Positions 2,517 to 54,500 of a stretch of 64,000 nt of DNA are shown one piece after another (position 1 is the first letter of the stretch; each line of letters opens with the position of its first letter). The notes below the pieces were generated by a model. The model had not been told where the DNA came from. It searched no databases and saw only the letters and a program-made list of their open reading frames with translations. This DNA is from a virus. Its lineage: Duplodnaviria > Caudoviricetes. A program made the translations under genes and the position numbers. The DNA lies in the IMG/VR virus record IMGVR_UViG_3300044898_000031, positions 1 to 64,000 of that record; one strand, 5' to 3'.

Positions 2517-2546
2517 TGTGCAATATAAATAAAATTATTGCACAAT
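2515..2546. promoter_or_regulatory. 11-bp perfect inverted repeat over HNH promoter and start codon
   Basis: ATTGTGCAATA-N10-TATTGCACAAT. Confidence 0.6.
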
Positions 2547-2593
2547 CAAAAGTGTACATAACTTATTGTTTTTTTTGTATAAAATTAAATTTT

Positions 2594-4945: not shown

Positions 4946-5480
4946 ATTGGTGTTTAATTTGTTCTACTTCTTCTGGTGTAAGGTATTTCCACGGAGAATG
5001 AAAACCGAGACTGCCTAAACTAAATTCTGTTTCCACACTGAACTTTTTTGCCGTTTCCTTATCAGGTAAATTGCCATTTAGTGCCTGTAACCCATTACAG
5101 AAGAACATATCCTCATTGCCTCCGTTATAAGGAAAATTGTCAATCACTTTTAGCATAGCATCCCGTTTTCTGAGGCTTAAACCACCGTTCATTGCCGGAA
5201 ATGGGATATGGTAAAGAGGCGCTCCAATAAAATCCCATTCTAAAAATTCCTCAATACCGTGACGTAAAAGCAAACTATCATGCTGAAAAATAAGTACATG
5301 GTCACACATTGCTTCCCAAAAGCCTCTTGAGGCAAGTAGTTCGTTATATTCCTGCATAGTGGTCATCGGCTGACTGATGTGTACCATCGACCAATCATCA
5401 GGTAAAAACTTAGCGTGTACATCCATTATCTTGCTCACGTCAAACCTGTTTTCAATAATAACTGCGCACTTGGTTATCAT
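4938..5480 (-). CDS. DUF5672-like, GT-A-like protein (start revised to 5480)
   Basis: LIFQHDS...DFIGAP...NGGLSLRK...NEDMFF; ATGA overlap. Confidence 0.75.
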   Translation of the reverse strand: MITKCAVIIENRFDVSKIMDVHAKFLPDDWSMVHISQPMTTMQEYNELLASRGFWEAMCDHVLIFQHDSLLLRHGIEEFLEWDFIGAPLYHIPFPAMNGGLSLRKRDAMLKVIDNFPYNGGNEDMFFCNGLQALNGNLPDKETAKKFSVETEFSLGSLGFHSPWKYLTPEEVEQIKHQYD

Positions 5481-6235
5481 GGTATAATATCTGATATAAA
5501 TAAGCATGCTTTATAAGACCAATGAAAACCGCTTGCGCTTTTATTATATCCTATAACAGAAAATATTCTTTTTCTTTTTATACCGGTTAAACTTTCTAAT
5601 TCCCATATATTTTTAAAGGAATTTATTAATTTATGGGTTTTTTTATCAAACTGATATATTCTTTTATGAGGCTTACTTGCTTGCCATATTGCTTGTCCAA
5701 GACGCATTTTAATACGGGATTCATCAGTATGTGATTTCCGCCACATATTATGCTTTTCTTTTTTTAACCCCTTTTTAAGATTGGTTTCTTTAGAATACTT
5801 TTTGCCGATTTGTCTCTGTCTATTAGCTTCTACAACGTCTTTCGACATTTTTTTTCCTAAAAGCCACGGTTTTGGGACTCCCTTCGTTCTTTCAGATCGT
5901 TTTCTTTTAGATTCTTCGGAATGTTTAAAACCAAGCATGCTGTTTGCAGTAGGACTTAAGTTGTAGCGAGGCTTAAAGAAATCAATCCATTTTTGTTCTG
6001 GAATAGTTAATTCAAATCTTGTTTTTGCCAATGGCAATTCTTCTATAATAGAAAATTCAAAATTCTCTTCACCGTGTTTATTCCATGAATTTTGAAGAAT
6101 TCTTGAATGATGCTTATTTGCTCTTAATAAATTTTTATGCTTCCAAATTCTACTATTTAAATTTACGGCTGACCCAATGTAAAAATCATTGCTTACTTTA
6201 TTTATAATGGCATAAATACAAGCTGTATCTATCAT
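5477..6235 (-). CDS. GIY-YIG homing endonuclease with NUMOD3-type repeats
   Basis: CIYAIINKVSNDFYIGSA; LGFKHSEESKRK and KSHTDESRIKM repeats. Confidence 0.9.
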   Translation of the reverse strand: MIDTACIYAIINKVSNDFYIGSAVNLNSRIWKHKNLLRANKHHSRILQNSWNKHGEENFEFSIIEELPLAKTRFELTIPEQKWIDFFKPRYNLSPTANSMLGFKHSEESKRKRSERTKGVPKPWLLGKKMSKDVVEANRQRQIGKKYSKETNLKKGLKKEKHNMWRKSHTDESRIKMRLGQAIWQASKPHKRIYQFDKKTHKLINSFKNIWELESLTGIKRKRIFSVIGYNKSASGFHWSYKACLFISDIIP

Positions 6236-6972
6236 TCTATAACCTCCTTATTAAAATTGGGATGATTATGCAATATTTTTGGTAATAAATTTTTATCAAA
6301 GTGAGTCGCTGACCAAAGCGACTCAGCTACAAGATGCAACCCTCCTTCAACTACATCTCCCGGTTTCCAATTCAAATACATATCTAACCAACCATCACGT
6401 ATCTCCGATTTATGACCGTGAACTTGTAATTTATAGCGCATCACCGCTTCACTTTGTGCAGTTGAAAAATGGTATACTTTACATGGGACTACGCCCTCTC
6501 CTCCACTGTTATGCAAATTAATATAGCGTATAGGGGTAAAACTGTCGTGACAGGCGTAATTAAACGACTTCCAAAAATTTATAAAACCGCCAAAGCCAAT
6601 ATACCGCTTGTCTGTTTTCGTACATAGGTCTAATGCAATAGATAAATCTATTGGGTCAAAAATCTCATCAGCGTCAAAAGCCAAAATCCCATCATATCCG
6701 TCTGCAAAATTTAAAATGTAATTACGGTGGTCGCCCTCTGTACCTGCATTTATTTTATACCATTCCACTTTTGGGCTCGCGGCTATCGCAATATCATGAA
6801 GTTCTGTTTCAGTCTCAGGGCAAATAGCATCCGTTCCAAATCCGTAACTGGGTTCATTAGTGTATAGGATAATGATACGCTCCACAAACGGTTCAACACT
6901 TTTTATGGCATATGACAGGTATTCTTTCCCGTATAAAAGCGGACAATAGGCGATTATGCGTGTGTTTTCCAT
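6232..6972 (-). CDS. Glycosyltransferase, GT-A-like
   Basis: YLSYAIKSV...DADE (DxD) motif. Confidence 0.7.
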   Translation of the reverse strand: MENTRIIAYCPLLYGKEYLSYAIKSVEPFVERIIILYTNEPSYGFGTDAICPETETELHDIAIAASPKVEWYKINAGTEGDHRNYILNFADGYDGILAFDADEIFDPIDLSIALDLCTKTDKRYIGFGGFINFWKSFNYACHDSFTPIRYINLHNSGGEGVVPCKVYHFSTAQSEAVMRYKLQVHGHKSEIRDGWLDMYLNWKPGDVVEGGLHLVAESLWSATHFDKNLLPKILHNHPNFNKEVIE

Positions 6973-7886
6973 AGAGATATTATATTGCTTGCCATGTGTG
7001 AAAAAGTATAGTTGTTTAAAGCCAATTGATGACCGTTTTCTCCAAAAATCATTAATAATTCTGCATCATTAATGATTTTATCAATTTCTGATTTTAACTC
7101 ATCAAGTGTATTCCAATAGTCTACCCTGCACAAGTTTCTTGAAAAATCAATTTCAATCCCTTTATATTGATGGCTTAACACACAGATACCACTCCCAAGC
7201 ATACGGAACATCCGATCACTGGTATACCTGTCGTAATCAAAGTGTGACAGGTTAATCCCGATCTTGGCGTTCCTGTAAATACAGGCCTCCCCATATTGGT
7301 CACCCATGTAATTACCGCTCTCAAATCCTCCCCACCCTGAACCGTACACACCGAAGTTATCCCCATAATGCATCTTTAGAAAAGATACCATTTGCTGCCT
7401 CATTTCAGATAAGGGAAAACCACCGCAGTTGTTCCCCATAAAAACTATTTCAGGTGAGGGGTATTTTTCACCATCGGGCTTATAAATTTCGGGATCATAT
7501 CCTATCTGTAAAAATTCTGACTGATAGCCCAACGCTCTCATTGTGGCTACATCTTCCTCATTTGAAAAGCAGGTTAAATCCACTCCCCAAGATTCCATAT
7601 CAATATAAAATTGCGGCAATGGACTTCTGCAATCTCCTGACCAGTTGATGGTATACGCGCCCGTTGCCTTTATCGCCTCAATAGAGGCTTGTGTGATGCC
7701 AGTGGCTTGTATTTGAATAAATACCAAGTCAGGGATAAAATAAGTCAATACATCGGCTATTCTGTGGTTTAAATCAGGTTCAGCAACTGATATTTCTAAA
7801 TATCCGTCACAAACCGTTCGCATCGCTTTAGTAAATCCGTTATCTTCGCCAACAGATGCCATGCACCCGATATAAAGTATATTCAT
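6954..7886 (-). CDS. Glycosyltransferase, CgeB/Glyco_trans_1_2-like (start revised to 7886)
   Basis: QIGYDPEIY, VFMGN, YRNAKIGINL, SDRMFRMLGSG motifs. Confidence 0.8.
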   Translation of the reverse strand: MNILYIGCMASVGEDNGFTKAMRTVCDGYLEISVAEPDLNHRIADVLTYFIPDLVFIQIQATGITQASIEAIKATGAYTINWSGDCRSPLPQFYIDMESWGVDLTCFSNEEDVATMRALGYQSEFLQIGYDPEIYKPDGEKYPSPEIVFMGNNCGGFPLSEMRQQMVSFLKMHYGDNFGVYGSGWGGFESGNYMGDQYGEACIYRNAKIGINLSHFDYDRYTSDRMFRMLGSGICVLSHQYKGIEIDFSRNLCRVDYWNTLDELKSEIDKIINDAELLMIFGENGHQLALNNYTFSHMASNIISLWKTHA

Positions 7887-8530
7887 AATGATGTAGGTTG
7901 AACAAGTAAATATGGGTGTGGTATCGGTTCTGTCCCATGCCATGCCCTGTGGTCGCCTTTATGCAGGTGATAGGTCTTCACCGTCCAGCTTGGGTTAGAT
8001 ATATTATACCCGGCTTTCTGAATCTCAAAAGCTAAACGGTTGTCAACACCGGGAGTTCCAATTTTAAAATTATAATTCCCCGGCTTTATACGGCCTCTAA
8101 AGCACCACGTATCCTGACTATCCGACCTATCCATAAAGGTTGCATCCTTAACCATTATATTACCAAACTTGACCATGTTATCGCTATTCATTTCCCACCT
8201 TGTCAATGCCCAGCAATCATTTTCAGTAAGCAATAATTTTATTATATCTATACCCTCCTCGTCAAAATAAATATCACTGTTTGCCACAATATTTATATCA
8301 TCATACCCCGTAACCTCATTTACCCAGTCAAATAACTGCTGCATTGTAGGACGGCTGTCTATCCATCTCATTGAGACATTTTTTTCAGGCATCGAAACAT
8401 TATGTGGCTTCATCTCATTCATAGCATAAATCATATCAATAAACTTACATGATTTGTTAATCAAATGAACATGATACAGTTCGTTTTCCCTGTCTGCATC
8501 ATAGTAATAAGTTGTGAATAGATTTACCAT
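7883..8530 (-). CDS. Conserved viral protein, possibly GT-A-like
   Basis: ANSDIYFD, WALTRW, SQDTWCF, GVDNRLA, YHLH motifs. Confidence 0.55.
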   Translation of the reverse strand: MVNLFTTYYYDADRENELYHVHLINKSCKFIDMIYAMNEMKPHNVSMPEKNVSMRWIDSRPTMQQLFDWVNEVTGYDDINIVANSDIYFDEEGIDIIKLLLTENDCWALTRWEMNSDNMVKFGNIMVKDATFMDRSDSQDTWCFRGRIKPGNYNFKIGTPGVDNRLAFEIQKAGYNISNPSWTVKTYHLHKGDHRAWHGTEPIPHPYLLVQPTSL

Positions 8531-8865: not shown

Positions 8866-8923
8866 CGGTGATGTTTTCTTTTCCTCCTGCCCTCAAAGAT
8901 GTCAATTTCTATAATCTCTATCT

Positions 8924-9175
8924 CTATGCAGCCGGGGTTGCGTTTGGGAGTAACAAGCTGATACCAGTATGGTTTTCAGGGTCACTGGCTAAAGCGTTAT
9001 TGATCGCTGTTGCCTGTTCGGCTGTCAAGGCTTCCAGTTGATTAATGAAGCTTACGTTTGCCAGTTCTGCCTGTGCCTCAGTAAGTGCTTCCTGATCGGT
9101 TTGTAAGGCTGTTGCCTCCTGCTGTACCTGTGCAGTAAGTGTGTCTACTTTGTTTTGAAGTGCGGTGCTATCCAT
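8924..9175 (-). CDS. Acidic Ala/Gln-rich coiled-coil protein
   Basis: Heptad-like composition; TACATTTG at 9190-9197 upstream. Confidence 0.6.
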   Translation of the reverse strand: MDSTALQNKVDTLTAQVQQEATALQTDQEALTEAQAELANVSFINQLEALTAEQATAINNALASDPENHTGISLLLPNATPAA

Positions 9176-9276
9176 GATTTTTTTTATTTCAAATGTAATT
9201 AGTTTTTACTTTAAAGTTATATCAATGATTTTTTTTAAATTAAACCGATTTTTAAGCCCGTAAATCAATTATATAT

Positions 9277-9522
9277 TCAAAGTTGATACATACTACCACC
9301 GTATGGGTTAAAGTGGCACTCGTGGTCTGTAATGAAGCCATACGGTATATTCAGCTTCCATTCACTTATCCGTTTAAACTGGTTCATATTATCAGAGAAT
9401 ATAAATTGTTCATTTGAATCAATCAGTTCCTTTACAATTTCAGTAACATCCCCGGCAGAAGTAATTACTGAAAACCATTTACCCGTTGGTACTGACTTTA
9501 ATTTTTTTATTGTTTCTATCAT
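9277..9522 (-). CDS. Hypothetical protein
   Basis: Directly follows primase-helicase in the operon. Confidence 0.55.
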   Translation of the reverse strand: MIETIKKLKSVPTGKWFSVITSAGDVTEIVKELIDSNEQFIFSDNMNQFKRISEWKLNIPYGFITDHECHFNPYGGSMYQL

Positions 9523-9525
9523 GGT

Positions 9526-11334
9526 TTAAAATGCTAATTCATTATTTTGTGAATTAATTGGGTCAAAATTGTAGTTTGGTAATAATTGCGTTGAAAACTC
9601 TATTTCTGATTGTGGCTCATCCGGCATTAGCCAATTTGCATTATCGTAATTATCCAATGAATTAAAACGGCTATTGTTCACATTATACCTAACTTCTACC
9701 ATCCCCTGATTTCCCAAATGGTTATACTTCATTTTCTGAACATGTATCTCACTCAATTCAGTTTCGTAATTCCTGTAAAATGTTATGCCAATGTCTGGTT
9801 TATTGAACCAGTTGCTTGATCCTGATATATCGTAAAGGTTTGGTATTTCAAATTGCCCTGTCTTTAAATTTTTCCTGATTTTTGTAGGATGAGCAATGAC
9901 TATTGAAAATATGCCGTGGCGCTGGCTGAACCTGATTATTTTATCCAGTTGTTTTGAAATGTAATTTGTTTCAGTGTCGCCTTTATCCTGATTATGCTCT
10001 AATTTATTCCAAGGGTCAAGCAAAAATCCCCTAACACCGTACTTAACGACTAAACTTTTTGCTTTTGATAAAATATTATCCAGTGTCACGTCATCATCTT
10101 CCGGCTCTATAAAAAAGAAGTGATCGTTTATAAATTCTTTTGCTACTAACTTTTCTTTATCGGTGAATCTAACGAATTTACGTACCCTTTTACCTATTAA
10201 ACATTCACATATAGTAACTAAAAACACAGCTAATGGCTTATGTTCAGGTGTAAACATTGCCCACTTATACCCGTGATTGACCGACAATGCACACATAATC
10301 TGCAAAGCAAATGGTGACTTTCCGTGATTTGGTATCCCTGTTAATACCATGAGGTGACCCGGATAAAATGAAACTAAATTATCAAACTCTTTCATATACC
10401 CGGTAGTATCTCCACGTGGCAATCCGTTTTCCATATAATTTTCAACCTCATCCCAAACATATTTGGCAGTAACTATACCAGAAATCGGAAATTCAATCAA
10501 ATTAGGCTCTCTAATCAATTCTTTTAATTCAGACGACCCTTTTGCTACCAATACTTCATTTGCGTCTTTAAACGATCCGAAATCAACCTTAAAACACCTT
10601 TCATACCCCACCCTACGTGCGAGTTCTTCCCTAAGTGCTATTCCCGGCTCATCATTATCCGTTGCCAATATTATTTTTGTCTTGTTATTGAAATAGTCCA
10701 CACAGTTATCCAAGTACTCCAAGTTGCAATTCCCTTTTGATGCGCCATTTGGGACTGAAATAACTTCTTTGATACCTGCTTCTGAAAATGAAAGTTTATC
10801 AATCTCTCCCTCTACGATCACACACCAGTCGCTTTCTTTAATGTCATCTAATCCATAAAAAACAAGTTCAGCATCTTTAACCATTTTGAAATGCTTTTTG
10901 CCGTCCCTGTATTTTACGTTTACCAACTGCCCGTCTCTGAAATAATTAAACTGAATAGTGTTTTCTTCTTTTTTTGTTTGAGGCATGTAAACCTTTCCCT
11001 CTGATAATTTAGCGTCAGACAATACTTTTTGAGATATACCGCGCTTAAAAAACCATTGCACTACTGCATCTGATAATTCGGTATTATTGACGTAAACAGG
11101 ACGGATATACTCTTTCACTTTTGGGATATATTCTTTCAATTCAAACACCTTACCTCTGAACTCGCAACCGGGATTATGGCAGTTGTAAACTCCATCGTCT
11201 AAATCGATACTAAGGCAAGGATCGTTTTTGTGTTTTCGTGAAGCACTACACTTAGGGCAGATAACTTTATCTGATCCTGCATTTCTTCTTGTAATTATAC
11301 CAAGTTCGGCAAACATTTCTTTTATAGCTTTCAT
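9526..11334 (-). CDS. Primase-helicase (Zn finger + TOPRIM + DnaB-like; T7 gp4/Twinkle type)
   Basis: CPKC...CHNPGC; IVEGEIDKLS; ATDNDEPG; Walker A GIPNHGKS; LLDPWNKL; AHPTK. Confidence 0.93.
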   Translation of the reverse strand: MKAIKEMFAELGIITRRNAGSDKVICPKCSASRKHKNDPCLSIDLDDGVYNCHNPGCEFRGKVFELKEYIPKVKEYIRPVYVNNTELSDAVVQWFFKRGISQKVLSDAKLSEGKVYMPQTKKEENTIQFNYFRDGQLVNVKYRDGKKHFKMVKDAELVFYGLDDIKESDWCVIVEGEIDKLSFSEAGIKEVISVPNGASKGNCNLEYLDNCVDYFNNKTKIILATDNDEPGIALREELARRVGYERCFKVDFGSFKDANEVLVAKGSSELKELIREPNLIEFPISGIVTAKYVWDEVENYMENGLPRGDTTGYMKEFDNLVSFYPGHLMVLTGIPNHGKSPFALQIMCALSVNHGYKWAMFTPEHKPLAVFLVTICECLIGKRVRKFVRFTDKEKLVAKEFINDHFFFIEPEDDDVTLDNILSKAKSLVVKYGVRGFLLDPWNKLEHNQDKGDTETNYISKQLDKIIRFSQRHGIFSIVIAHPTKIRKNLKTGQFEIPNLYDISGSSNWFNKPDIGITFYRNYETELSEIHVQKMKYNHLGNQGMVEVRYNVNNSRFNSLDNYDNANWLMPDEPQSEIEFSTQLLPNYNFDPINSQNNELAF

Positions 11335-19953: not shown

Positions 19954-20286
19954 ATGAACCTAAAAGACGAAACCCTTAAACATATTGGCAATAAGTCAAT
20001 AAAATGTATTTATATATTTTATTGCTATTTTAGGATCGACCACGATAGTGATGTTGAGCAATTTATATTGCCAGTTAATCACACAAATGAACAAGCAAAT
20101 GATTTTATAGCGTCTTTGGATTTTAATTATGATAATGGTTATGGTTCTCAGCGCTACGATGGCACTATATGGTATAAAGACGGATCCTGGTCAGAGCGAA
20201 CCGAATATGATGGCTCCGAATGGTGGGCATATAGAACATGCCCCGAAATACCTAAAGAATTAAAAGGAGAACACCATGCCATTTAA
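19954..20286 (+). CDS. Hypothetical phage protein
   Basis: YDNGYGSQ...GTIWYKDGSWSERTEYDGSEWW motif. Confidence 0.7.
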   Translation: MNLKDETLKHIGNKSIKCIYIFYCYFRIDHDSDVEQFILPVNHTNEQANDFIASLDFNYDNGYGSQRYDGTIWYKDGSWSERTEYDGSEWWAYRTCPEIPKELKGEHHAI

Positions 20287-20461
20287 ACCGTACACCCCTG
20301 AACAGGTCTTTGATTTACTCGGCAGCGTAACATGTGAAACCGATGTAATAGAAATAGAGCATTATGTAAAATCACACTGGCAGTATTATACGCCTTTAGA
20401 TGTGCGCCTTTTCTTACAGAGTATTAGAATGATTAATCAATATTTAAATAAAAAGACATGA
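20276..20461 (+). CDS. Hypothetical protein
   Basis: Overlap-coupled. Confidence 0.55.
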   Translation: MPFKPYTPEQVFDLLGSVTCETDVIEIEHYVKSHWQYYTPLDVRLFLQSIRMINQYLNKKT

Positions 20462-20984: not shown

Positions 20985-21366
20985 ATGAAAAAATTACTAC
21001 TCCTGCCATCCCTGTTATTTGTTTTAACAGCTTCGGCACAAACAGCACAATACAAACGTATTGAAACAACTCATTTTAAAGGGGATAAATTGTCTTCTAA
21101 AGTTATCAATTACAAATCTGGAAATATTTCGATGGGAGACAGTTTTATCAATATCGAAGGATTAAAGAGTTTTACAATTGTTTCTAAGGGTCAAACGGAG
21201 GCCGAGGATGAAGGATATTATTCACGGACATTATTTGATCACTGAGACGACCAAAGGCTCGCTAAAGGCTTTAAAACCCGTTCTTTTTTGGTCGCCTAAA
21301 AATAAACTAGTAGATGTAGTGGTAAAGGACGGCCACCGAAATATTGATTATTGTTTAACCAATTAA
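20985..21366 (+). pseudogene. Signal-peptide protein split by an apparent 1-nt insertion
   Basis: MKKLLLLPSLLFVLTASA|Q; removing a T at ~21231 fuses ...YYSRT with YLITETTK... Confidence 0.55.
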
Positions 21367-32443: not shown

Positions 32444-32841
32444 GGTTTGGCTTTGGGATTACCGATAAGCGCACGACGTTTAAGAGTGTTAGACCGACTC
32501 CAATAATTTTCTTTGTTAAATGTAGCTTGATTTAATCCTTTATAATATTCTATATAATGTTTTTCAAGAGTGCCACCCCATCCATACGTAACGTCAATTA
32601 CATTAAAAATAGGAGTCTTTCCAATGGAAATCATTGCTCTTATCCAAAACCCAACCGTGCTTTTTGCGTGCCTATGGCAGTAAAATCTTTCGGAGAAATT
32701 AAAGGTTTTTCCTACGTAAACGACAAATCCATTATAGGGGCAACAAATAGTGTAAATATATTCAGGAACAAAAGGCACTATAAGCCCATTGCTCATATAT
32801 TCCCATTTTTTGGGAAAGCCAGTTTTGGGTTGATTTATCAT
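32440..32841 (-). CDS. Minimal GIY-YIG nuclease
   Basis: YIYTICCPYNGFVVYVGKT...RFYCH...LEKHYI. Confidence 0.7.
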   Translation of the reverse strand: MINQPKTGFPKKWEYMSNGLIVPFVPEYIYTICCPYNGFVVYVGKTFNFSERFYCHRHAKSTVGFWIRAMISIGKTPIFNVIDVTYGWGGTLEKHYIEYYKGLNQATFNKENYWSRSNTLKRRALIGNPKAKP

Positions 32842-33002
32842 TTTTTATCCTGTTTCGGTATTTCAATATTTAAACGCTTGGCGTTTTTTTTAATCCAGTG
32901 TTCGACCAGGTTGCCCTGCGATCTGCCTTCATGCTCGGAGATTTGTTCCAATACCGGCTTTAGATTTTCTTCAATTTTTACAGTTAACATTTTTTTTGCC
33001 AT
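32838..33002 (-). CDS. Ribbon-helix-helix regulator (54 aa, not in track)
   Basis: MAKKMLTVKIEENLKPVLEQISEHEGRSQGNLVEHWIKK; ATGA-coupled to GIY-YIG. Confidence 0.7.
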   Translation of the reverse strand: MAKKMLTVKIEENLKPVLEQISEHEGRSQGNLVEHWIKKNAKRLNIEIPKQDKK

Positions 33003-38731: not shown

Positions 38732-40582
38732 TCAATAAACAATAATACCAAACTTACCGTCGATAATCACAAAGTGACTCTGCGCAGCAGGGCTTACGGC
38801 AAAAGTGATTGTATAATGCGAACTGCCACCCGTATTGGTTGCTGTAATCGTTACTGCTGTAGGGCTGTACACCGCAGTCGGCAAGCCCGATATAACACCT
38901 GTAGCGGCGTTTAAAGATAACCCCTGCGGTAATGCGACATCACTCGTATAGGATGTTGGGATACCACCCGTATTCGTTGGTGTCAGGGCAGTTATCCCCT
39001 GATTCTGAATATAAGCCACCATAGAAAGCGGGTAAGTGATATTTGGGGCAACTACCGGGATGGCATTTACTTTGATCGTTATAGGTACGCTACTGCTTCC
39101 TCCTCCATTTGTTGCGGTCGCTGTATAGGTAGTTAGCGGAGAGCTTGCCAGTGGAATACCTAATATTGTCCCATTAGCGAATATAAGCCCCGCAGAGAGA
39201 GCCGGCGAAATTGACCATGAAGTAACCGCACCACCTGTATTCGATGGATTTAAGGGGGTTATAGCCGTCCCTACTGTTGCGGTGAGCGTGTTGGGGGAAT
39301 AGGATATATTAGGAGGGACTATAACCGGAGCTTTAACAACAATTGTTAAAGGCACACTACTCGTACCGCCTGAGTTATGCGCCACCACAGTATAGGTAGC
39401 CGACACGGTGACAGCACCGGGTATCCCGCTAATAATCCCCGTTGTGCTATTGATGCTTAACCCCGAAGGGAGTGCAGGCGATACGGTGTAGTTTACGATT
39501 GCCCCGCCAAAGCTATTGGACACAATGCTTACTATCGGTAAGCCTACCGTAAACGAATAAGAGGTAGGGGAATAACTAATACTCGGCGGCGCGACTACAG
39601 GGGTGCATGCAGGCCATAGCGGGTTAGGCAGGATGGATGCGTTTAACGCAGTACTGGTGGTATTACTTGCCCAACCAGTAGGCGAGAAAGCCGTACTGGG
39701 GTCAAACCAGTAGTTAAACACGTTCCCGTTGGCTGCGTTACAGCGAACGTTATTGAACGCCATGGTAATATTATTTGACGGTTGTCCGGAATAATTACCA
39801 AATGCGATGCCTACTGAAGTGTAAGATGTTTGTGCTAAATAACCTGTGTTATAACTCATTTCAATAAACGTACCACCTTGCACCTGTGCGCACACACTGC
39901 CACAGTTCACAAATGTATTACTATCGCATCGTTGATATGAACCACCAACGTCCCCTCCAACCATGCCAACATAGCCTGTTCCCGGTGGATTATTAGAACC
40001 ATTTAAGCATTGATTTCTACAAGCCCGTATAGGACTTGCGGGAGTTCCATTACATTTATACAAAGAAAATTGGTCGCCTATTCCCGGGCCGCTCACGTCA
40101 TGATAGGATTTATTATCTAAAATCTGAATTGATGGCCCATTACACCCATTCAATTGAACCGAACTACCCCCTCCATCACTTGATGATGCTGTAACATTTG
40201 GATCAATAATATTATGGAAATAATTATACCAAATATGAATATTACTTGTATTACCTGTCGTTCCATTTATTCCACGCCAACCGGACTCAAAGAAACAAGT
40301 GTCTATTGTGATATTGTAACATCCTGAATTTATCCTTATCAACCCTGATAAAGCCGTACTATTTTTAATGATACATTTAGTAATGTGTACATCATGAACT
40401 CCCGCAGGAATGTTTATACCCACTGTAGCTGTGCCACCGAGGTCAATTGATTTTCCTGAAATAGTTGTGTTTGATGTTGCTGTGATTGCGCCGCTTGAGG
40501 TAAATGTTCCGCAACCGGGGACGGCTTGCGCCAAAGAGAACAAAGGTAAAATTGTGAGAAAGAACAGGATCAATCGTTTCAT
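38732..40582 (-). CDS. Secreted right-handed beta-helix protein with three putative Ig (He_PIG-like) domains
   Basis: MKRLILFFLTILPLFSLA|Q; N/G-rich parallel beta-helix; three ALP.GL....TG.ISG.P repeats. Confidence 0.8.
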   Translation of the reverse strand: MKRLILFFLTILPLFSLAQAVPGCGTFTSSGAITATSNTTISGKSIDLGGTATVGINIPAGVHDVHITKCIIKNSTALSGLIRINSGCYNITIDTCFFESGWRGINGTTGNTSNIHIWYNYFHNIIDPNVTASSSDGGGSSVQLNGCNGPSIQILDNKSYHDVSGPGIGDQFSLYKCNGTPASPIRACRNQCLNGSNNPPGTGYVGMVGGDVGGSYQRCDSNTFVNCGSVCAQVQGGTFIEMSYNTGYLAQTSYTSVGIAFGNYSGQPSNNITMAFNNVRCNAANGNVFNYWFDPSTAFSPTGWASNTTSTALNASILPNPLWPACTPVVAPPSISYSPTSYSFTVGLPIVSIVSNSFGGAIVNYTVSPALPSGLSINSTTGIISGIPGAVTVSATYTVVAHNSGGTSSVPLTIVVKAPVIVPPNISYSPNTLTATVGTAITPLNPSNTGGAVTSWSISPALSAGLIFANGTILGIPLASSPLTTYTATATNGGGSSSVPITIKVNAIPVVAPNITYPLSMVAYIQNQGITALTPTNTGGIPTSYTSDVALPQGLSLNAATGVISGLPTAVYSPTAVTITATNTGGSSHYTITFAVSPAAQSHFVIIDGKFGIIVY

Positions 40583-42189: not shown

Positions 42190-42564
42190 TTAATTCTGTT
42201 TTGCCAGCCGTTTAGTATTTAAAAAAATCCAGGTATATAGCTTTGTTTGTAAAGCCGTCCATTTTGAGTAAACACTTGCGGGCATATCCTTTTTCACGGT
42301 GGTTAATAGCGAACCTGATTTATCATAATACCTTAGCTCTAACTGAATGTTTATGGTGGTATCACTGGTTATGTGCGCTAATATATCTACAGAACGCACT
42401 GAATCCCCTAAGGCATTTGCGGGGATATTAACAATCTCCTGCCCGTATTTAGGCATCCAAAGCGAATCATTTAAAGTCAGGTTCTTAGACTTTACTTTAA
42501 TCATTGTTTGTGCATTTGCGCCGATAGCTGCTATCAGGAGCAAAAAGGTTAAGTATTTTTTCAT
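42190..42564 (-). CDS. Signal-peptide protein in tail-fibre cassette
   Basis: MKKYLTFLLLIAAIGANA|Q; DSL, DSV, DTT sequons. Confidence 0.75.
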   Translation of the reverse strand: MKKYLTFLLLIAAIGANAQTMIKVKSKNLTLNDSLWMPKYGQEIVNIPANALGDSVRSVDILAHITSDTTINIQLELRYYDKSGSLLTTVKKDMPASVYSKWTALQTKLYTWIFLNTKRLAKQN

Positions 42565-43004
42565 CTGTAATCTCCTAATAAAGTTATTCTTAAATTTAAT
42601 GTGCTGCCTGTTACCGTTGCCGCCGTCACCTTAACAAATATGCCTGTATTCGCAGGAACTGACGTTGCTATTGTTGCCAGTGTCGGGTACATGATACTAT
42701 TTAGCGTGTACAAGCTAGTTAAGGTTGTTGCGGGTACTATGTTATTGTAATTGGGGCTGTTAGTACCCACCGATACAATGGCAGGAACAGTAAGTACGGT
42801 AACATTACTGCTCATTATCTCACAAACAGCCAAAAGCGGATAAAACATCTCTGTCCCATTTTCGGTCGTCCCTATCTGTGTGGATGCGGAGGAAAGCAAA
42901 CTGATGTTCGTTTTAGGGAACCGCTCCAATGGCCTGTTCCCCGCGCCCTGTGCGAAAAGTAATGCGGGTGAAAGTAATAAAAATAATAAGATAAGATTTT
43001 TCAT
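42561..43004 (-). CDS. Signal-peptide beta-sandwich-like protein in tail-fibre cassette
   Basis: MKNLILLFLLLSPALLFA|Q; S/T/V-rich. Confidence 0.75.
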   Translation of the reverse strand: MKNLILLFLLLSPALLFAQGAGNRPLERFPKTNISLLSSASTQIGTTENGTEMFYPLLAVCEIMSSNVTVLTVPAIVSVGTNSPNYNNIVPATTLTSLYTLNSIMYPTLATIATSVPANTGIFVKVTAATVTGSTLNLRITLLGDYR

Positions 43005-43006: not shown

Positions 43007-46000
43007 TTAATAAGTAAAAAAGTTTCCGGATGAAGCAACATAATAAACCCTTATGTTGCCATAATTTGTATTGATTGTTTTACTTGATGCACCGTCAATA
43101 GTTTTACCTGAAGGTGCATTTATAGTGATATTGTTTGTTCCTGCTGTTCCAGCCTCATCTTTGATGATTTGCTGTTGCTGATCTGTCAGCGCGATTAAGG
43201 TAACGGTACGGGCGGCTGTAAGTGACGTGTACGAAATCAGGTAGTCGGTCGATAAGGCGGTGTATGCAACGTCCGAAACGGTAGTTCGGCTGTTCAGATA
43301 ATTAGTGCTGTTTACACTCACTAAGTTCTTGTTTGCGTCTGTGCCTACAAGTTTTGAAGCTGTGAGTCCGTCCAAGTGAAATGCTCCTGTTCCGATCCAT
43401 GCTGAAAAATTATTAACCCCGGTAGCCACCGCATTCCCCACGTATAACGAAGCTGTATTAGTTACCGAACCTGTTCCTACCAGTGTAATTGTGCCGAGTG
43501 GGTTAGCTACAACAGTTGCGGCCCATGGTACAGTTGTGGCTGTTCCTACCTGAAATGGTGTTGAGCCGAATATAGCGTTTGAATAAGTAGTGCCATTTGC
43601 AACAAGTGAGTTAGTATTACCGTTAAATAGAACTCTATAATTATTGGTTGCTGCACCGGCATATATAGCACCTGTTGATGTAGTTGTTGTGGTAGATGTG
43701 CCCCCGTTCGCATTAAAATTAGCTGTACCCCCTGAAGCGGTGAATATACCCTGATTACCTTGTATAAAACCTCCTATAATGCTTCCGTTTGTGGTGAAAG
43801 TCCCACTATTTGTAAGTGTTAGCGAACCTGAATTATCCAAAACCATTCTTGTAGTATATGACGGCGTACTTGATGAACCCCTTGAGGATGCCCATGTAAG
43901 TGTGGTGGTTGGTGCTGCCCCGCTTGTTACATCAGCATATTGTATCCAGTCGGCATAATTATCGGCAGCCGTTGTGGTGGTATTCCATACATGCGCACCC
44001 AAATGAAGTGATGGCGATATTTGTCTTGGTACGCCTGATGTGGATAGTGTATTATTTTGCAAGAAAAGCGCATCCGTTGGAGTAATGACGATGTTGTTTT
44101 GCTGAAAGGTATTTAACCCTGTCCATATATTGGCTGCTGTTAAGGAAACACCCTCATTGTAATCCACCCACCAGCTTGCTGCGGTTGTACCACTTGTTAA
44201 GATACACGTAAATACAGCAGATGACCCGGCAGGCATAATACGCACCGTGTTACCTCCAGATGATTGCACCGTAACCACTCCTGTACTTGAATTTTTTATA
44301 GATATGGAATAGTTAAACACCAATGTTGATGCTACAGGCAGTACGCATGTTTGTGTTGTTGTGCCTGTAAATATTGTTTTATTTGGAGAGCCTACCGTAA
44401 GGGTGGTTGTCCCGGCTGCTGTAGCTATACTTTGCCCGTTTTGAATTAGGTTGTTAATTGTTGAGTTGGCATTAGCATCACGGGAAACAATAGTACTTGC
44501 AGTGGCAGCATTGGTAGCATCGGTAGTGATCGTAACTGCTGCTGACCCATTATAAGATGAACCTCCGGATGTAAGATGTGTGTCAAATGTCAGTGCATTA
44601 AGATTTGACCCTAATGATACGCCGCTAATGGTTGAGTTGACTAAACCAGCGTTTGGTAATCCTGTAGCATTGGCAAGTGTTAATGATGCCGGAGTTCCAA
44701 ATACACCACCGTTGGGAATAGTCACCGTCCCTGTGAAAGTTGGCGAAGCGATGTTGGCCTTTAAAGTAATATTACTTGTGTTGGTAGCAATATTGGTGGT
44801 ATTGGTTGTAATCCGTCCACTCAAATTATTATAATCAGTCAACGCCCCTGCTTTGCTTTTTAAAACTGTAGTATCCGCGCTGATAGTCCTATTTGCCGAA
44901 AGGTCGCCAATGGTTTGCATACCTAATCCTGCTGTTAAAGTGCGGGTTGTTGGAACATAACCATTAAACTTGGTTTGAAGTGCTGAAAGTGAGTAACTAT
45001 TTGCTACGGTTCTGAATACTGCACTGTCGACTTTTGGTGCTGCATCGCTTCGCATGAACGTAACAGCAGAACCATTTACAGCCGAAGTCCCTGCTGTTGC
45101 TGTCGGATTAGCACCCGTAGGAACTGTAACCCCGCTTACCGCATTATCTACATACGTCTTAACTGCATTTTGAGTTGGGTATAGTGTATTGCTTGTTCCT
45201 AAAGTAGTAGTAGTTGATTTATTGGCGACTTTCTCTAACAAAGCCTCGAATGTGCTTGATATATCAATTACAGGCGTTGCACCTCCTGTAGAAGTAATTC
45301 GGTTAGTTGTTCCTGAAACAGAGGTGACACCCGATGAAATAGTCCCCTTAACACTATCTGCTTTGGCTTTGGCGGTACTGTCTGTATATGATTTGTTTAC
45401 TAAGCTGTTTCCCCAATATAAGGCATGATTAACACCCGATATTTCAATTCCATTGTGAGTAGTATTATCAATGCCCTGAATAGCCGAATGAAAACCTACG
45501 CGCGGTGTCGTCTCTATAAATATGGCAACCTGATGCGATATGTCTTTATTTTGAATAATATCAAACCTGTCATTACCAATATTTACATCGGTATAATTTG
45601 CTGAATCCCGGCTGCCTGATGGATTGTCCCCGGTTACAAAATGATAACCTGAATACGAGCCGTAATTATGAAAATCAAACAGGTTTCCGTTCAGGTCTAA
45701 ATCAAAGTTACCAGTTAGTGTACCGCCCAAGTTAACTGTACTATCCCCGATTGCTGTTGTACCGCTTCCGTCAACAATATGCGAACCGCCTCCACCGCTA
45801 CCAGTTCCCACGTTCCCACCCGCATCAACTACTAACGAAGTGCCCCCCGTTATCGCTGGCAAGTCCAGTATTGTCATGCCACCTTTTACTTTTAACGCCC
45901 CGTTAACCCCTGCGCCTGTTGCCGGGCCTGTAATATTTACGGTATAGGCTGAATCTATTGTTGCCCCGCCTATATTAATAATATGCAGTGGTTTTATTGC

Positions 46001-47185
46001 TATTTGGTTGAACATGGAATAGCTCCCACCAGCCGCAGCAGTCACGTCCTGATTGCCGATAATAAACCCGGAATAATCCGTGCCTGATAAGGGGTTGGCA
46101 GAAGTTGACCCCCGCATAAATGCCCGGTAAGCTACTGTGCTATGGTCTGATATTAATAGCTTTGGATTGGTACTTGTATTTACCCCGCTCCCAAATACGG
46201 CAAAGTCGGATGACTCCCTCGCGCCGGGGTTGGACTGGTAAACGCCTTCAAGTGGTGTGCCAATTATAGGCCCTGTAAAAGCAAGCGTATCGCCGTGTTG
46301 ATGTACAGTTACGTTTGACCTGAAATTCAATGGCAGAAAAGGTAAAACCAATGTGTCCACCTTTAGCGTATCATTACTCGTCCGTAGTCCGAAGCCGATA
46401 TGCGCCGTATGTGCGGTCAGTGTATCCTTTAAAGCTGTTTGGGTAACTACATTTATCGTATCCACTGAAAATACATTAGCGGATAATTTCAGCCCGAACC
46501 CGGCATTATAAATCGCCTGATTACTGAAAAAAAGGTTTCCTGCCCCGTCCGTTTGTATTACCTGCCCGCTCAGCCCGTCGTTTGCCGGGAGGATATATTT
46601 TCCTCCAATAGTAAGCGTGTCTGTCCTTAATGACCTCACCCACGGCGTAGCGGTATTTTGCTGTATTAAGGGGTTAGCAAGAACAAACTGATTGATTGGC
46701 CCGGGTGGGATTATTATTGTACCCGTAGGAGTGATTAACACAGCCCCTGCGCGAAGGTCGCCATGCGGTATACTTGGCTCTACCGGATTAGGAGAAAGTA
46801 TCCCTACGGCGATGTGAATGCCGTTATTGGCACTGTCGGCATAAACCGTCTCATACCGTGAGTAAACACTGTCTCTTGGTTGCAGGGTAAAGTTGGCAGG
46901 AGATGATAAAGTATATACCGTATTACTGATATTCCAACTCCCTGCGCTTACAGTTAGCGTCGAGCCGGATACCGAAAGATTAAGACCTGATAATATTTGA
47001 TTATATGATTGGTATTGCCCAAAATCAAAGTACTGGTATGTTAAACCATTAAACATCCATCTATGATGGGTTGACTGGTCATAATACATGGTTGCCTGTG
47101 GCATTTGTACAGGCTGCAATGGCTTTGTTTGTGACTTAACTAAAAACGGGCACAACAATAAAAAGTATAAAAGTAATTTTTTCAT
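43007..47185 (-). CDS. Tail fibre/adhesin with Sec signal peptide (start revised to 47185; 1392 aa)
   Basis: MKKLLLYFLLLCPFLVKS|Q; G/S/T-rich fibre repeats (SVSGTTNRIT, YPTQNAVKTYVD, LKANIASPTFTG, GTPASLTLANATGLP); C-terminal TIDG..SKTINTNYG domain; ATGA overlap. Confidence 0.8.
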   Translation of the reverse strand: MKKLLLYFLLLCPFLVKSQTKPLQPVQMPQATMYYDQSTHHRWMFNGLTYQYFDFGQYQSYNQILSGLNLSVSGSTLTVSAGSWNISNTVYTLSSPANFTLQPRDSVYSRYETVYADSANNGIHIAVGILSPNPVEPSIPHGDLRAGAVLITPTGTIIIPPGPINQFVLANPLIQQNTATPWVRSLRTDTLTIGGKYILPANDGLSGQVIQTDGAGNLFFSNQAIYNAGFGLKLSANVFSVDTINVVTQTALKDTLTAHTAHIGFGLRTSNDTLKVDTLVLPFLPLNFRSNVTVHQHGDTLAFTGPIIGTPLEGVYQSNPGARESSDFAVFGSGVNTSTNPKLLISDHSTVAYRAFMRGSTSANPLSGTDYSGFIIGNQDVTAAAGGSYSMFNQIAIKPLHIINIGGATIDSAYTVNITGPATGAGVNGALKVKGGMTILDLPAITGGTSLVVDAGGNVGTGSGGGGSHIVDGSGTTAIGDSTVNLGGTLTGNFDLDLNGNLFDFHNYGSYSGYHFVTGDNPSGSRDSANYTDVNIGNDRFDIIQNKDISHQVAIFIETTPRVGFHSAIQGIDNTTHNGIEISGVNHALYWGNSLVNKSYTDSTAKAKADSVKGTISSGVTSVSGTTNRITSTGGATPVIDISSTFEALLEKVANKSTTTTLGTSNTLYPTQNAVKTYVDNAVSGVTVPTGANPTATAGTSAVNGSAVTFMRSDAAPKVDSAVFRTVANSYSLSALQTKFNGYVPTTRTLTAGLGMQTIGDLSANRTISADTTVLKSKAGALTDYNNLSGRITTNTTNIATNTSNITLKANIASPTFTGTVTIPNGGVFGTPASLTLANATGLPNAGLVNSTISGVSLGSNLNALTFDTHLTSGGSSYNGSAAVTITTDATNAATASTIVSRDANANSTINNLIQNGQSIATAAGTTTLTVGSPNKTIFTGTTTQTCVLPVASTLVFNYSISIKNSSTGVVTVQSSGGNTVRIMPAGSSAVFTCILTSGTTAASWWVDYNEGVSLTAANIWTGLNTFQQNNIVITPTDALFLQNNTLSTSGVPRQISPSLHLGAHVWNTTTTAADNYADWIQYADVTSGAAPTTTLTWASSRGSSSTPSYTTRMVLDNSGSLTLTNSGTFTTNGSIIGGFIQGNQGIFTASGGTANFNANGGTSTTTTTSTGAIYAGAATNNYRVLFNGNTNSLVANGTTYSNAIFGSTPFQVGTATTVPWAATVVANPLGTITLVGTGSVTNTASLYVGNAVATGVNNFSAWIGTGAFHLDGLTASKLVGTDANKNLVSVNSTNYLNSRTTVSDVAYTALSTDYLISYTSLTAARTVTLIALTDQQQQIIKDEAGTAGTNNITINAPSGKTIDGASSKTINTNYGNIRVYYVASSGNFFTY

Positions 47186-47760
47186 GATATGATAAAGCCG
47201 CTTATTTGAATATAGCCTGTAGTCGGTATAGGATATGTCCATGTGTAACTGTCTGGCAGGTTTATATCGCTGTCAATATTAATGATGGTAGGCACTGTTG
47301 CGGTATCCTGTGTATACGTTCCATCGCCGTTGGATACCCATATAGATATATCAGGGAAGTTTCCATACAAGATAGAATAGGTAGCTTGATAGCCCGATAA
47401 TGAAATGGTAGTTTGTGCATTAAATAGTATCCTTGTTGCATTGGCCGTGACATCTTGGGTGATAACAATTGAATTTGGCGGCGGTTGGTAATTCTCGTCT
47501 ATCTCATTCAGTGTGGGGTCCAGCCCTATTTTTTCACTCAGACAGATATAAACGGCTACCGCTTCACTTGAATTATAATCACCCATATTAAACTGCCTGC
47601 TCAATGCCTGTATATTAAGGTAATATTCTTGTGCTTCTTTCCAACTGACAGACCCCAATGGTGCTCCTTTAGTCAATTTTACACGGTTATCCTCAACTAA
47701 ATTCGCCATAATCAGTTGAGCCGTGAGTATCGTATTTTGTACCTGATCCTGTGTTATCAT
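47182..47760 (-). CDS. Putative tail hub/fibre-attachment protein
   Basis: Position between ejection genes and fibre; no signal peptide. Confidence 0.5.
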   Translation of the reverse strand: MITQDQVQNTILTAQLIMANLVEDNRVKLTKGAPLGSVSWKEAQEYYLNIQALSRQFNMGDYNSSEAVAVYICLSEKIGLDPTLNEIDENYQPPPNSIVITQDVTANATRILFNAQTTISLSGYQATYSILYGNFPDISIWVSNGDGTYTQDTATVPTIINIDSDINLPDSYTWTYPIPTTGYIQISGFIIS

Positions 47761-51500: not shown

Positions 51501-54500
51501 CATGCTCTTTAATAATTCAGGGTTGACCCCTATATTTGTTTCAGAACGTGCTTTTTTTAAGGCTTGTGATAATTCTTTTTTAGACTGCTCTAAATATTGC
51601 CCCCGTTTTACTGCGCCTGCGGATTTTTCAGGTTGTTCACGTACTGTCTCACCTTTAATATTTTCGTCCGCACTTCGGCTTTCGTCATTGGCCTGTCGTA
51701 CATCTTCCGGAATGCGTCCAGTGTCTTCTGCGTTGTTTGCAGGTAGTCCGGTATTTGTTCTTGACTGCTCATAATCCCTTATTTGGTCGGCAGTGATGCC
51801 GTTTGGTTTTAAATCCTTTGTTACTCCGGCTTTTGCCTTATCATTCAGGTTTACCAGTTTAGCCTTACTCTCATCTTGAATATCTAATGCTTCTTTAGCC
51901 TTTTTAATAAGTTCGGGAGTAAGTTTTTCACGATTCTGGCTGTAAGCTAACCGCGCCTCAAAATCGCTGTCATAGGGTTTAGAAATAGTTAATCCTGAAT
52001 TGGTATCCACAATACCGAATTTCCCATCAGGGAGTTCCCCCAATGCTAAATGATATTCAGACCCTTTTAGCTTATAAGGTTGAAGCAGGTTATTATCCTT
52101 AATTTTGATTTTACCTGCTTTACCTTGCGTTACTTCTTCTTTGGTGGGAATGGGTTTTTCTTCTTTGCTGGTTTTTTCTTGCTGCCCATTTTGTCCGCTT
52201 TCTTGTCCATTTTCGGCTCGTAGCCCTTCTTCATTGTTGCCATTTTCTGTTGTTTTTATTGGTGAATATTTAATATATTTAGCTATATCATAAACTTTTT
52301 GCTCCCGATCAACTTCTGCCTGCCAAACTTTAGCCATCTTCTCATCTTTAAGACGATTAGCTTCGACAAGATTATCTTTTGCATTTTGTAACCTTCTCTC
52401 AGTGGCTTCCAAATTAGGTCTATTCTCAGCCAATTGTCTTTCAGTTGACCTTTTTGGCGTTAAATTCGGTTTGCCTTGTGGTGCTTTATCAATACGCTCA
52501 GGGAACTCTTTTTTTATTTGGTCAAGCCCATCGGTGCCTATAAACCAATCTTTGTGAACCTTAAATACACCATCATCCTTTACATTAAAGATAACTTTAC
52601 CGTCTTTATCAACTTCATACCCTGCTTTTTTAACAGCATCTACATTTTCGCCATCACCATCCAAAGCCGCATGAACTTCTTGCATTTGATCGATAATATC
52701 AGCTTTTTGTGCCTTTAGTTTTGCAGTAGTGGCATTATCTTTATCCTTTAACTCTTTAGCTTTACTATCAATGGCTTTAATCAACTGTTCTTCTTTGACA
52801 TCATCCGCTTTAACTTCGGTACGTCCACTGGCTTGCTCACTTGTTGTGGTAGGCTCTTTTGGTCGGTCTGATCCGCCCATTTTTTCGCCCATTTCTGGTG
52901 TGTCGCGAATGCCCATTTTTGCTGTTTCTTGCTGAGAAAGGGTGCCATTTTCTTGTTCTCCTATATTAGTTTCAGGTGTTTCATTAACTTTTTCAGCAGG
53001 GGCTTCCTGCGGTGCTTGCGGTACGCCATTTTCAACAGTCGGCTCAATCGGTGGTGTGTTGACTTGGTTCTGTATATCTTCATGCTGCTCTTTGATGACA
53101 CCTTTTAAAGCCTTATAAGCCTCGTTCTTTAATTTGGTAAGGTTCTCTATCCCTACTTCCGCTTCGGTCTTTTCAACGGGGTCTTGTGAGCCGTCAGCGA
53201 TAGGTTGCAGGTTCTTTAAATCCTCGTCAATCGCACTGATCTTTTTGCCTATCTTCTGCTTTAAATTTTCCGTCAAATCCGTATGTACGGCATTTACCTT
53301 GTCTAAAACGGCCTGTTTCTCCGGTGCTGATAATTCTGAATTATTTATACCCTCTACGAAACTTGCCTTATCAGCCAATAGGCTTTGCGCTATCGTTTTG
53401 ACATTGGATAGCTTGCTATACGTTGAACTTGCTGCTGCCAGTTGCGCCCTTTTCTCCGGGTCAGTCTCCTTTTTTGCCTGTGCTGCATAATCTACCGCTT
53501 TCGCATTCAGGTCAGCCGCATTATCCGGTAACTCATAAGCTTCTTTAATAGCATCAGGGGAAGCATCCAAAAAGTTGTTCATCGCTACCGCCTGCCTGTT
53601 CTGCTTAAATTCCTGCAATGGCGCATCCGCCTTTTCAAACTCTCCTGCGGTATGTGCCGCCTTTAACAGCCCAAAAAAACCACCGATACCTGCATTAGTT
53701 TCCGCCTCTTTTAAATCAAATGGTTTTCCTTGTAATAAATTTGAGGCAATAGGATAAGCCCCGAAGATAGCGGCATCCGTAACTGCATCAACCCCCATTT
53801 TAGTAAGTTTACCATCGGTTAATATTCCTGTCGAAGTAAGTCCGTTAGCTATCTTTGGCGAAATAAACTCCCCTCCTATTGAACCCAATACATTCATGGT
53901 AGCGGCGCTTATCCCCTCGTGTACTGCTCCCTTTAAGCCCTCTTTAGCAGCTTCTGCGGGTGCGCGTCCCTGCTGCCTTGCAAGGTCATAGCTTTCCAGC
54001 CCTCCTTTAATAGCTGATATTTTTGTAAATGGATTTATCACCACTGATTTTAACTTCGCCAGTGACGCAGCATTTACGCCCATATCGGCTGTAGTGCCCA
54101 ATTCCGCTTCGGGTGCTAATGCTGCCGCACCTGCTATTGGGGCTATATTGATAAGCCCACTTGTCACGTTCCCAAAAAATGTATTTGGCAACGGGTTCTT
54201 CTGATCCTGCTCCGTAGTGGCATTATTATAACTGTCAAGCCCTAAAGCAAGCTTATTAGTAAAACTGCCTGCGGTATGGTCATCCCCTAATTTATTAGCC
54301 AAATCAACTGATACGTGGGCTAAGCCAGCCAGTGGCTTTGTTACAGCCCCTACAAGCGCATGCTCAAATATTGGGAGTGTATTGCCCCAATTCCCGGGAT
54401 GTGCTTTCTCAAAGTCTTTACGCTGCTTTTCTAAGTCCTGATAATATTGACTACCGGGATTATTAAGCTGCGCTTCAGGCGTATTTTGATTAGCTATAAA

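Follow-up and report, generated by a model that had tools for sequence, protein, structure and literature searches.

The window analyzed here is a stretch of 64,000 nucleotides, part of a 76,528-bp IMG/VR virus record (IMGVR_UViG_3300044898_000031) that is rated 100% complete, and it carries on its minus strand a gene for a long protein that looks like the receptor-binding fibre of a tailed phage and that begins with a predicted Sec-type signal peptide. The N-terminal half of this fibre is enriched in the tripeptide D-[ST]-[AILVMT], which is called the sequon below; any D[ST]x tripeptide is referred to as permissive when its third residue is one of A, I, L, V, M and T. As judged from the sequence and its relatives, the best reading of this sequon load is selection on an exported protein that is glycosylated by the host. 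The features of the gene are as follows, with an arrow marking the predicted signal-peptide cleavage site.

43007..47185, minus strand: gene of the fibre or receptor-binding-protein-like protein, 1392 residues when counted from the signal-peptide Met.

47129..47185, minus strand: predicted Sec-type signal peptide, with MKK, a hydrophobic core and VKS↓Q, Gln being at +1.

47009..47128, minus strand: conserved mature N-terminal peptide of about 40 residues (residues 39-78), with the pattern Q-x2-P-x2-PVQ-x2-Q-x-T-x-Y.

46694..47011, minus strand: β-sandwich "shoulder" domain (residues ~78-183), with sequons D124 and D136, as recognized by an AlphaFold2 (AF2) model and a structure search.

44867..46873, minus strand: sequon-rich segment (residues 124-792) with 15 motifs, as defined by the motif count, shuffles and Asp-specificity.

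46283..46621, minus strand: cluster of six DT[LI] sequons (residues 208-320), as seen from the motif positions, in a region of low AF2 confidence.

43007..44866, minus strand: C-terminal 619 residues, comprising the distal shaft and the tip, with no sequons (0 versus 2.4 expected).

The fibre residues are numbered from the first ATG of the longest open reading frame (ORF; 43007-47242, minus strand, 1411 residues), so that the predicted mature start is Gln39. The signal-peptide Met lies 19 codons downstream of the start of this ORF, and it is here, at MKKLLLYF..., that the protein starts in the database copy (P0004), in the gene calls and in all homologues; the upstream gene ends at 47182, abutting the fibre start at 47185. 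A canonical n-h-c layout with Gln at +1 (MKK or MRK, a hydrophobic core and A↓Q) is recognized by sequence rules in nearly all homologues, and Gln at +1 is typical of most Bacteroidetes signal-peptidase-I substrates, the so-called Q-rule (PMC5837995). The stretch of about 40 residues after the predicted cleavage site is among the most conserved of the family, the columns of the Q-x2-P-x2-PVQ-x2-Q-x-T-x-Y pattern being invariant in an alignment of nine sequences, and it may be a docking or sorting peptide.

The 15 sequons start at D124, D136, D208, D261, D273, D291, D296, D318, D430, D500, D546, D621, D629, D739 and D790, and these are exactly the 15 motifs that the initial annotation of this DNA had counted by hand in the N-terminal half; the sole further D[ST] of the fibre is DTH887, which is not a sequon. 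When the mature N-terminal half is shuffled with preservation of its composition (20,000 shuffles per region), 3.7 sequons are expected, such that the observed number is a 4-fold excess (p<5e-5). The excess is also significant for the whole mature fibre (15 versus 6.5 expected, p=0.002), a test that avoids a post-hoc choice of the boundary, and the enrichment noticed by eye therefore holds against shuffling. In the C-terminal half, the absence of sequons (0 versus 2.4 expected) is not significant by itself. The Asp counts had also been given correctly, with 40 Asp residues in the mature N-terminal half and no sequon among the 17 of the C-terminal half (Fisher p=0.002 for sequons per Asp), and the C-terminal half, described as just as rich in Ser and Thr, is indeed richer, with a fraction of 0.29 compared with 0.22 in the N-terminal half. 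The bias is specific for Asp. All D[ST]x tripeptides of the N-terminal half are permissive (15/15, as had been claimed), compared with 68/147 (46%) of the other X[ST]x tripeptides of this half, in which Ser or Thr also follows Asp 1.7 times as often as expected from the composition. For the whole fibre, 15/16 D[ST]x tripeptides are permissive, against a background of 0.454 (binomial p=7e-5). The comparison drawn initially with a non-secreted ORF of 2088 residues, said to have about 5 permissive motifs among 17, was a miscount; this ORF has 11 D[ST] and one sequon, which makes the contrast stronger than claimed. A DNA tandem repeat was looked for under the cluster of DT[LI] sequons, and none was found.

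The sequons are conserved in the family, for which a set of 167 homologues was obtained from two database searches. The first six fibre sequons are kept in 14/14, 7/14, 14/15, 12/15, 15/15 and 14/15 of the aligned homologues, respectively, such that five of these six sites are kept in 12 to 15 of about 15 sequences, with lower values further along the chain. In homologues at 40-75% identity the sequons are preserved by swaps between S and T and among L, I, V, T and A. When the relatives that share the N-terminal domain are divided by the presence of a signal peptide, the permissive fraction of D[ST]x is 366/451 = 0.81 in those with and 39/77 = 0.51 in those without (per-protein Mann-Whitney 1e-4; Fisher 5e-8, a value that, like the other Fisher p-values of the family comparisons, overstates the independence of the data because related sequences are compared). 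For the control, the other X[ST]x tripeptides, the permissive fraction is 0.45 in relatives both with and without a signal peptide. The same division is visible in single columns of an alignment of the shoulder domain. In the column of the first sequon, the Asp is nearly invariant, and a sequon (D-S-V, D-T-I or D-S-T) is found in 9/17 of the proteins with a signal peptide and in 0/9 of those without, all nine of which have D-A-T, D-A-S or D-V-T. In the column of the second sequon, the corresponding numbers are 11/17 and 1/9. The Asp is thus structural, and its completion to a sequon is associated with export.

The bias is also observed within genomes, when considering six related phage genomes, namely the present one and five IMG/VR records (G001-G005). 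In their signal-peptide ORFs, 119/156 = 0.76 of the D[ST]x tripeptides are permissive and there are 0.80 sequons per 100 residues, compared with 245/745 = 0.33 and 0.22 sequons per 100 residues in the ORFs without a signal peptide (Fisher p=1e-23); the difference is preserved when the fibres are left out (45/67 versus 245/745, p=8e-8). Every family comparison points the same way: the sequon enrichment is Asp-specific and conserved, and in the six related genomes it is confined to the signal-peptide ORFs.

These comparisons also bear on the possibility that the sequon excess is a structural by-product, in which D-[ST]-hydrophobic is a turn or strand-start motif that has been inherited by descent and no glycan matters. 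Such an origin would agree with the near invariance of the first-sequon Asp even in proteins without a signal peptide, as well as with the second-sequon column, where one relative lacking a signal peptide has a complete sequon (DTT) and two others have D[ST] followed by a non-permissive residue; the six DT[LI] motifs are moreover close together in a probably repetitive β structure, and the conserved sites are common by descent. It agrees less well with the permissive fraction of 0.46-0.51 in the homologues without a signal peptide, which equals that of the non-Asp controls, with the D-A-T, rather than D-S-V, of their first-sequon column, with the restriction of the bias to signal-peptide ORFs in the same phage genomes, and with the third residue, at which only permissive residues, Thr and Ala among them, replace one another. 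A structural by-product is considered to be improbable.

The sequons are distributed unevenly along the chain, and this N-to-C polarity is a trait of the family. In 20 long members with a signal peptide, the ratio of observed to expected sequons falls from 6.0 in the first quartile of the length to 2.5, 1.3 and 0.40 in the second, third and last quartiles, compared with 0.77, 0.96, 0.73 and 0.45 in 27 long fibre proteins that lack one. The initial annotation had proposed that the shaft is selected to be heavily glycosylated while the tip stays bare. The shaft part of this proposal is borne out insofar as the enrichment is real, Asp-specific, conserved and linked to the signal peptide, but the bareness of the tip as a selected trait is rejected, because the ratio of the last quartile is alike with and without a signal peptide (0.40 versus 0.45). 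The tip is thus at the general fibre baseline, and it is the proximal two-thirds that are enriched rather than the tip that is specially avoided. The D[ST] dipeptide itself is somewhat rarer in the tips of the proteins with a signal peptide (0.50) than in the tips of those without (0.79).

The phage is a distant relative of the Cellulophaga and Flavobacterium podoviruses, and Pervagoviridae-like, when judged by protein identity and gene order. Its 1285-residue virion protein has 26% identity to structural proteins of these podoviruses (phi38:1, phi18:3 and others), and the order of terminase, portal, structural block, giant proteins, fibres and lysis genes resembles theirs. The label "muzzle", given initially to the 2088-residue ORF, would imply a crAss-like phage and is not in agreement with the relatives found. 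The host almost certainly belongs to the Bacteroidota, because the relatives found infect Cellulophaga and Flavobacterium and because the signal peptides follow the Bacteroidetes Q-rule. The fibre gene lies directly downstream of the genes of the 1285-residue and 2088-residue virion proteins and upstream of the lysis genes, and the relatives are arranged alike. In the nearest cultured phage group found, the Pervagoviridae, gp085 and gp087 of phi38:1 have a comparable late-gene position, but their N-termini (MARIKNT...) have no signal peptide and they have no detectable sequence similarity to the fibre. Over the 25 genes of phi38:1 that were read, 29/93 (about 30%) of the D[ST]x tripeptides are permissive, and 6/17 in gp085 and gp087. 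That cultured relatives make fibres without signal peptides, as shown by these two proteins, would fit a hydrophobic N-terminus that is not a working signal peptide, being, for example, a membrane or tail anchor, on a protein that stays cytoplasmic and whose sequons are never used. The canonical layout and the +1 Gln that nearly all homologues possess speak against such an anchor, as does the tracking of the signal peptide by the sequon bias, which is hard to explain without periplasmic exposure, and a non-functional signal is regarded as highly improbable.

The AF2 model of the fibre spans mature residues 1-422 and is confident only for about 100 residues (model residues 41-140), which have predicted local distance difference test (pLDDT) values of 81-96 and form the shoulder domain. 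The structure matches of this domain are with SPP1 gp22 (Z score 8.2), Mtd (7.5), the fibre of cyanophage A-1(L) (7.4), the receptor-binding protein (RBP) of phage 1358 (7.4), the HFTV1 fibre (7.2), the phi812 baseplate (6.2), TssK (6.1) and the RBP of phage p2 (6.0). Each of the twelve best entries of this search (Z 4.3-8.2) is SPP1 gp22, a phage protein of the tail-fibre, receptor-binding or baseplate type, or one of the type VI secretion system homologues TssK and IglD. Among the predicted structures of BFVD, the matches are with proteins annotated as receptor-binding or minor tail proteins. With Z values in the middle range, the support for a phage RBP is at the level of the fold only. Sequons D124 and D136 sit in loops that flank a strand of the confident shoulder model. 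The shoulder of the known proteins SPP1 gp22 (2xc8), p2 RBP (2wzp), 1358 RBP (4l92) and TssK (5m30) is likewise a common N-terminal β-sandwich of about 100 residues in a trimeric RBP; these known shoulder proteins are cytoplasmic, whereas the shoulder of the fibre follows a signal peptide and carries two sequons.

The homologues have in common the signal peptide, the invariant post-cleavage peptide and the shoulder, which are followed by mosaic shafts and tips. Three fibres with a signal peptide (P0007, P0021 and P0024) end in SGNH/GDSL hydrolase domains (PF13472, PF00657), which are typical of receptor-modifying tailspikes. Several distant homologues carry the shoulder domain internally, and in two of the related genomes a second, weak shoulder match (26% identity) is located 1-2 kb further inside the fibre ORFs (G002:C1:14871-15173 and G003:C1:10851-11153), which hints at an internal second shoulder-like domain. 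For the fibre itself, no match was found in Pfam and PHROG scans, in a tblastn search of 50,697 phage records, or in a phmmer search of all Protein Data Bank chains at E<=0.1. The genome was found to contain neither a fibre-like ORF that lacks a signal peptide nor another receptor-binding candidate. Because of the shoulder fold, the mosaic shafts and tips, and this lack of a fibre-like ORF without a signal peptide, the protein looks like the receptor-binding fibre of the phage, with a signal peptide placed ahead of its docking domain.

In Bacteroidota, the motif D-(S/T)-(A/I/L/V/M/T) is enriched in non-cytoplasmic proteins, where its Ser or Thr is nearly fully occupied; an engineered motif gets glycosylated, and proteins are cross-glycosylated between species (PMC12871550). 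The glycoproteomes described comprise 257 sites in 145 proteins for Porphyromonas gingivalis and 312 sites in 145 proteins for Tannerella forsythia, most periplasm-exposed proteins being glycosylated (PMC8729774). Given the near-full occupancy, most of the 15 sites would by default be expected to be glycosylated if the fibre is exported.

It is proposed that a Sec signal peptide of the Bacteroidota type takes the fibre across the inner membrane and is removed by cleavage ahead of Gln39, and that the fibre is then modified in the periplasm at its D-(S/T)-(A/I/L/V/M/T) motifs by the general O-glycosylation system of the host phylum. Glycosylation may be the reason for the signal peptide, as first proposed, or may simply follow from export. 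The family would have been selected for many sequons in the N-terminal two-thirds, the 15 sequons of the present chain allowing up to 45 glycans per trimer, and an exported partner protein of 124 residues (described below) would add three more sequons. Sec would export the chain from the N- to the C-terminus, leaving its proximal part unfolded in the periplasm longest. Fibres of such a kind usually fold from a C-terminal nucleus, and folding of the trimer would be nucleated once the C-terminus emerges. The likely benefit of dense proximal glycans would be the solubility and the protease protection of a long unfolded chain, and the longest unfolded wait of the proximal chain would explain the N-to-C gradient of the sequons. 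The mature fibre would subsequently meet and join the particles at or after lysis. This joining is probable because there is no other receptor-binding candidate and because the shoulder has a baseplate-docking fold; it is also feasible, since T4 fibres join fibreless particles spontaneously in classical in vitro complementation. Taken together, the fibre is probably an exported protein of the RBP type that is O-glycosylated by the periplasmic system of the host, selected for its N-terminal sequons and likely to join the particles. More tentatively, and somewhat less probable than not when all its steps are required, each chain would be Sec-exported, trimmed to a pyroglutamate start and decorated with up to 15 host glycans, and would be added to DNA-filled particles only when the compartments mix at the time of lysis.

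The last of these steps can be replaced by another fate. It is possible to imagine that the fibre undergoes export and glycosylation without becoming part of the virion, and that it acts instead on or in the envelope of the infected cell, at the surface or in the periplasm. There it could mask or destroy receptors, preventing superinfection and the trapping of progeny, or it could serve as an adhesin, as the MAT fibres of Bdellovibrio do. Conservation of the signal peptide throughout the fibre family and the established cytoplasmic assembly of tailed-phage particles are both accommodated by such a role, and the SGNH esterase domains at the end of some homologues could destroy receptors. The shoulder fold, however, is the part that docks RBPs to baseplates, the gene follows directly after the virion block in a genome with no fibre-like candidate lacking a signal peptide, and the T4 precedent makes attachment after lysis feasible. 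A role outside the virion is considered unlikely, although it is the strongest of the alternatives.

Several points weigh against the proposal of an exported, host-glycosylated virion fibre. There is no known way for a protein of the periplasm to become part of a tailed-phage particle. Export, glycan attachment, glycan function and virion role are all deduced from sequence, and the signal peptide was called by eye and with a simple rule. The confident portion of the AF2 model holds just 2/15 sequons, and the relatedness of the compared sequences applies to the family statistics as described above. At one sequon position, D[ST] is also present in some of the relatives that have no signal peptide, and part of the sequon signal is thus structural. 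Finally, two exported proteins of the same cassette, of 616 and 147 residues, are almost free of sequons.

The fibre has much in common with the known substrates of Bacteroidota O-glycosylation (PMC12871550, PMC8729774). Like them, it combines a Sec signal peptide, predicted in the case of the fibre, with a Gln residue at +1, and its D-(S/T)-(A/I/L/V/M/T) motifs would likewise be exposed outside the cytoplasm in soluble regions; for these substrates, as for this phage, the motif excess is limited to proteins with export signals. The fibre differs from the known substrates in being encoded by a tailed phage of lytic type, in its resemblance to a receptor-binding fibre, and in the number of motifs, 15 per chain compared with about two detected sites per known glycoprotein; phage proteins are not mentioned as substrates in either paper. 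The MAT fibres of Bdellovibrio bacteriovorus (PMC10769870) are exported proteins that resemble phage tail fibres and have the architecture of the present fibre, with a signal peptide, a conserved β-rich N-terminal domain and a mosaic shaft and tip, but they are encoded in the chromosome of a predatory proteobacterium, which displays them on its surface, and their description includes no glycosylation motif. The phmmer search of all Protein Data Bank chains, which should include MAT fragments (full-length MAT sequences being outside this set), gave no match with the fibre. Prophage proteins of P. gingivalis (PMC10367356) likewise are Bacteroidota phage gene products with host-type signal peptides and Gln at +1; these are small and are discussed as modifiers of the host envelope, and neither fibres nor glycosylation motifs are mentioned. 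In literature text searches, no paper on exported or host-glycosylated Bacteroidota phage fibres was found, the nearest being the latter study (PMC10367356).

If the proposal is correct, a fibre decorated in the host periplasm would be a new assembly route for tailed phages, the particles of which are generally regarded as being made wholly in the cytoplasm. Known glycosylation of bacterial virions is done by phage enzymes in the cytoplasm, as in mycobacteriophages, whereas here the virion appendages would carry host-type glycans. It would also give the phages of a phylum that is prominent in gut, soil and marine habitats a new means of stabilizing or disguising their host-recognition gear. 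Purified particles should then carry a fibre that starts at pyroglutamate 39, with host glycan at sites that can be predicted. In Escherichia coli, fibres of this type would be made incorrectly, such that host-range engineering and structural work would need a Bacteroidota expression host.

Three further genes of exported proteins are located close to the fibre gene.

42190..42564, minus strand: exported partner of 124 residues with three sequons and a signal peptide ending in ANA↓Q.

42561..43004, minus strand: exported neighbour of 147 residues with zero D[ST] and a signal peptide ending in LFA↓Q.

38732..40582, minus strand: exported protein of 616 residues with a He_PIG Ig-like domain (Pfam PF05345, 7.5e-21; PHROG "tail protein").

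The three sequons of the 124-residue partner are DSL, DSV and DTT, as first noted (shuffle p=0.009), and all three are kept in 13/13 homologues, down to 40% identity, with swaps of S/T, L/I and V/A. In its AF2 model (pLDDT 68), the sequons are at loop or strand edges; no fold match was found, the best match of the structure search (Z 4.6) being noise. The 616-residue He_PIG protein has no sequon among its two D[ST], and its equivalents in the related phages have one sequon among 2-3 D[ST]. Just past its signal peptide lies a conserved Cys-Gly-x-[FY]-T motif, and the protein occurs in 5/6 related phages, with no counterpart seen in G001.

A locus of glycan-related genes, interrupted by two genes of homing-endonuclease type, is found at the left end of the window (17-8530, minus strand).

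3250-3894, minus strand: weak Pfam match with GT2.

4460-4945, minus strand: Pfam match with hexapeptide acetyltransferase.

4938-5507, minus strand: Pfam match with DUF5672.

6954-7943, minus strand: Pfam match with Glyco_trans_1_2.

1941-2516, minus strand: endonuclease-type gene, HNH.

5477-6235, minus strand: endonuclease-type gene, GIY-YIG and NUMOD3.

A glycosyltransferase with 61% identity is present in one other IMG/VR phage, G001. Synthesis of the fibre glycan by this locus was considered and is rejected as a trait of the family. Only here and in G001 are DUF5672 and Glyco_trans_1_2 found; G001 is without the N-domain of this fibre but has other signal-peptide fibres. GT2 genes are found in G001, G004 and G005. 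In G003, a complete genome, the fibre has 13/14 sequons and none of the three glycosyltransferase families searched is present. The sequon-rich fibre is thus independent of these phage genes, and the host system suffices.

In a 72.8-kb relative with a signal-peptide fibre homologue (P0015), a gene of 146 residues matches SecB (PF02556; L002:21768-22208, minus strand). An export chaperone encoded by the phage would be in keeping with an exported fibre; this SecB-like gene has no homologue in the present genome or in its five relatives.

Small exported proteins are also encoded elsewhere in these genomes. An early-region protein of 86 residues (window 20985-21245, plus strand) has a Q-rule signal peptide, the mature start QTAQYKRIETTHF and no sequon, and similar mature starts are found in G004 (32471-32872) and G005 (67982-68368). 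In the related phages, small exported proteins of 91-123 residues have the pattern Q-x-K-x-D-T/S-x, in which the D-T/S-x is located 4-7 residues past the Q-rule cleavage site (G001 53758-54099; G002 4323-4607; G003 20109-20399; G004 46009-46380 and 46980-47255; G005 8905-9243 and 9293-9619), and in 5/7 of these proteins it is a permissive sequon.

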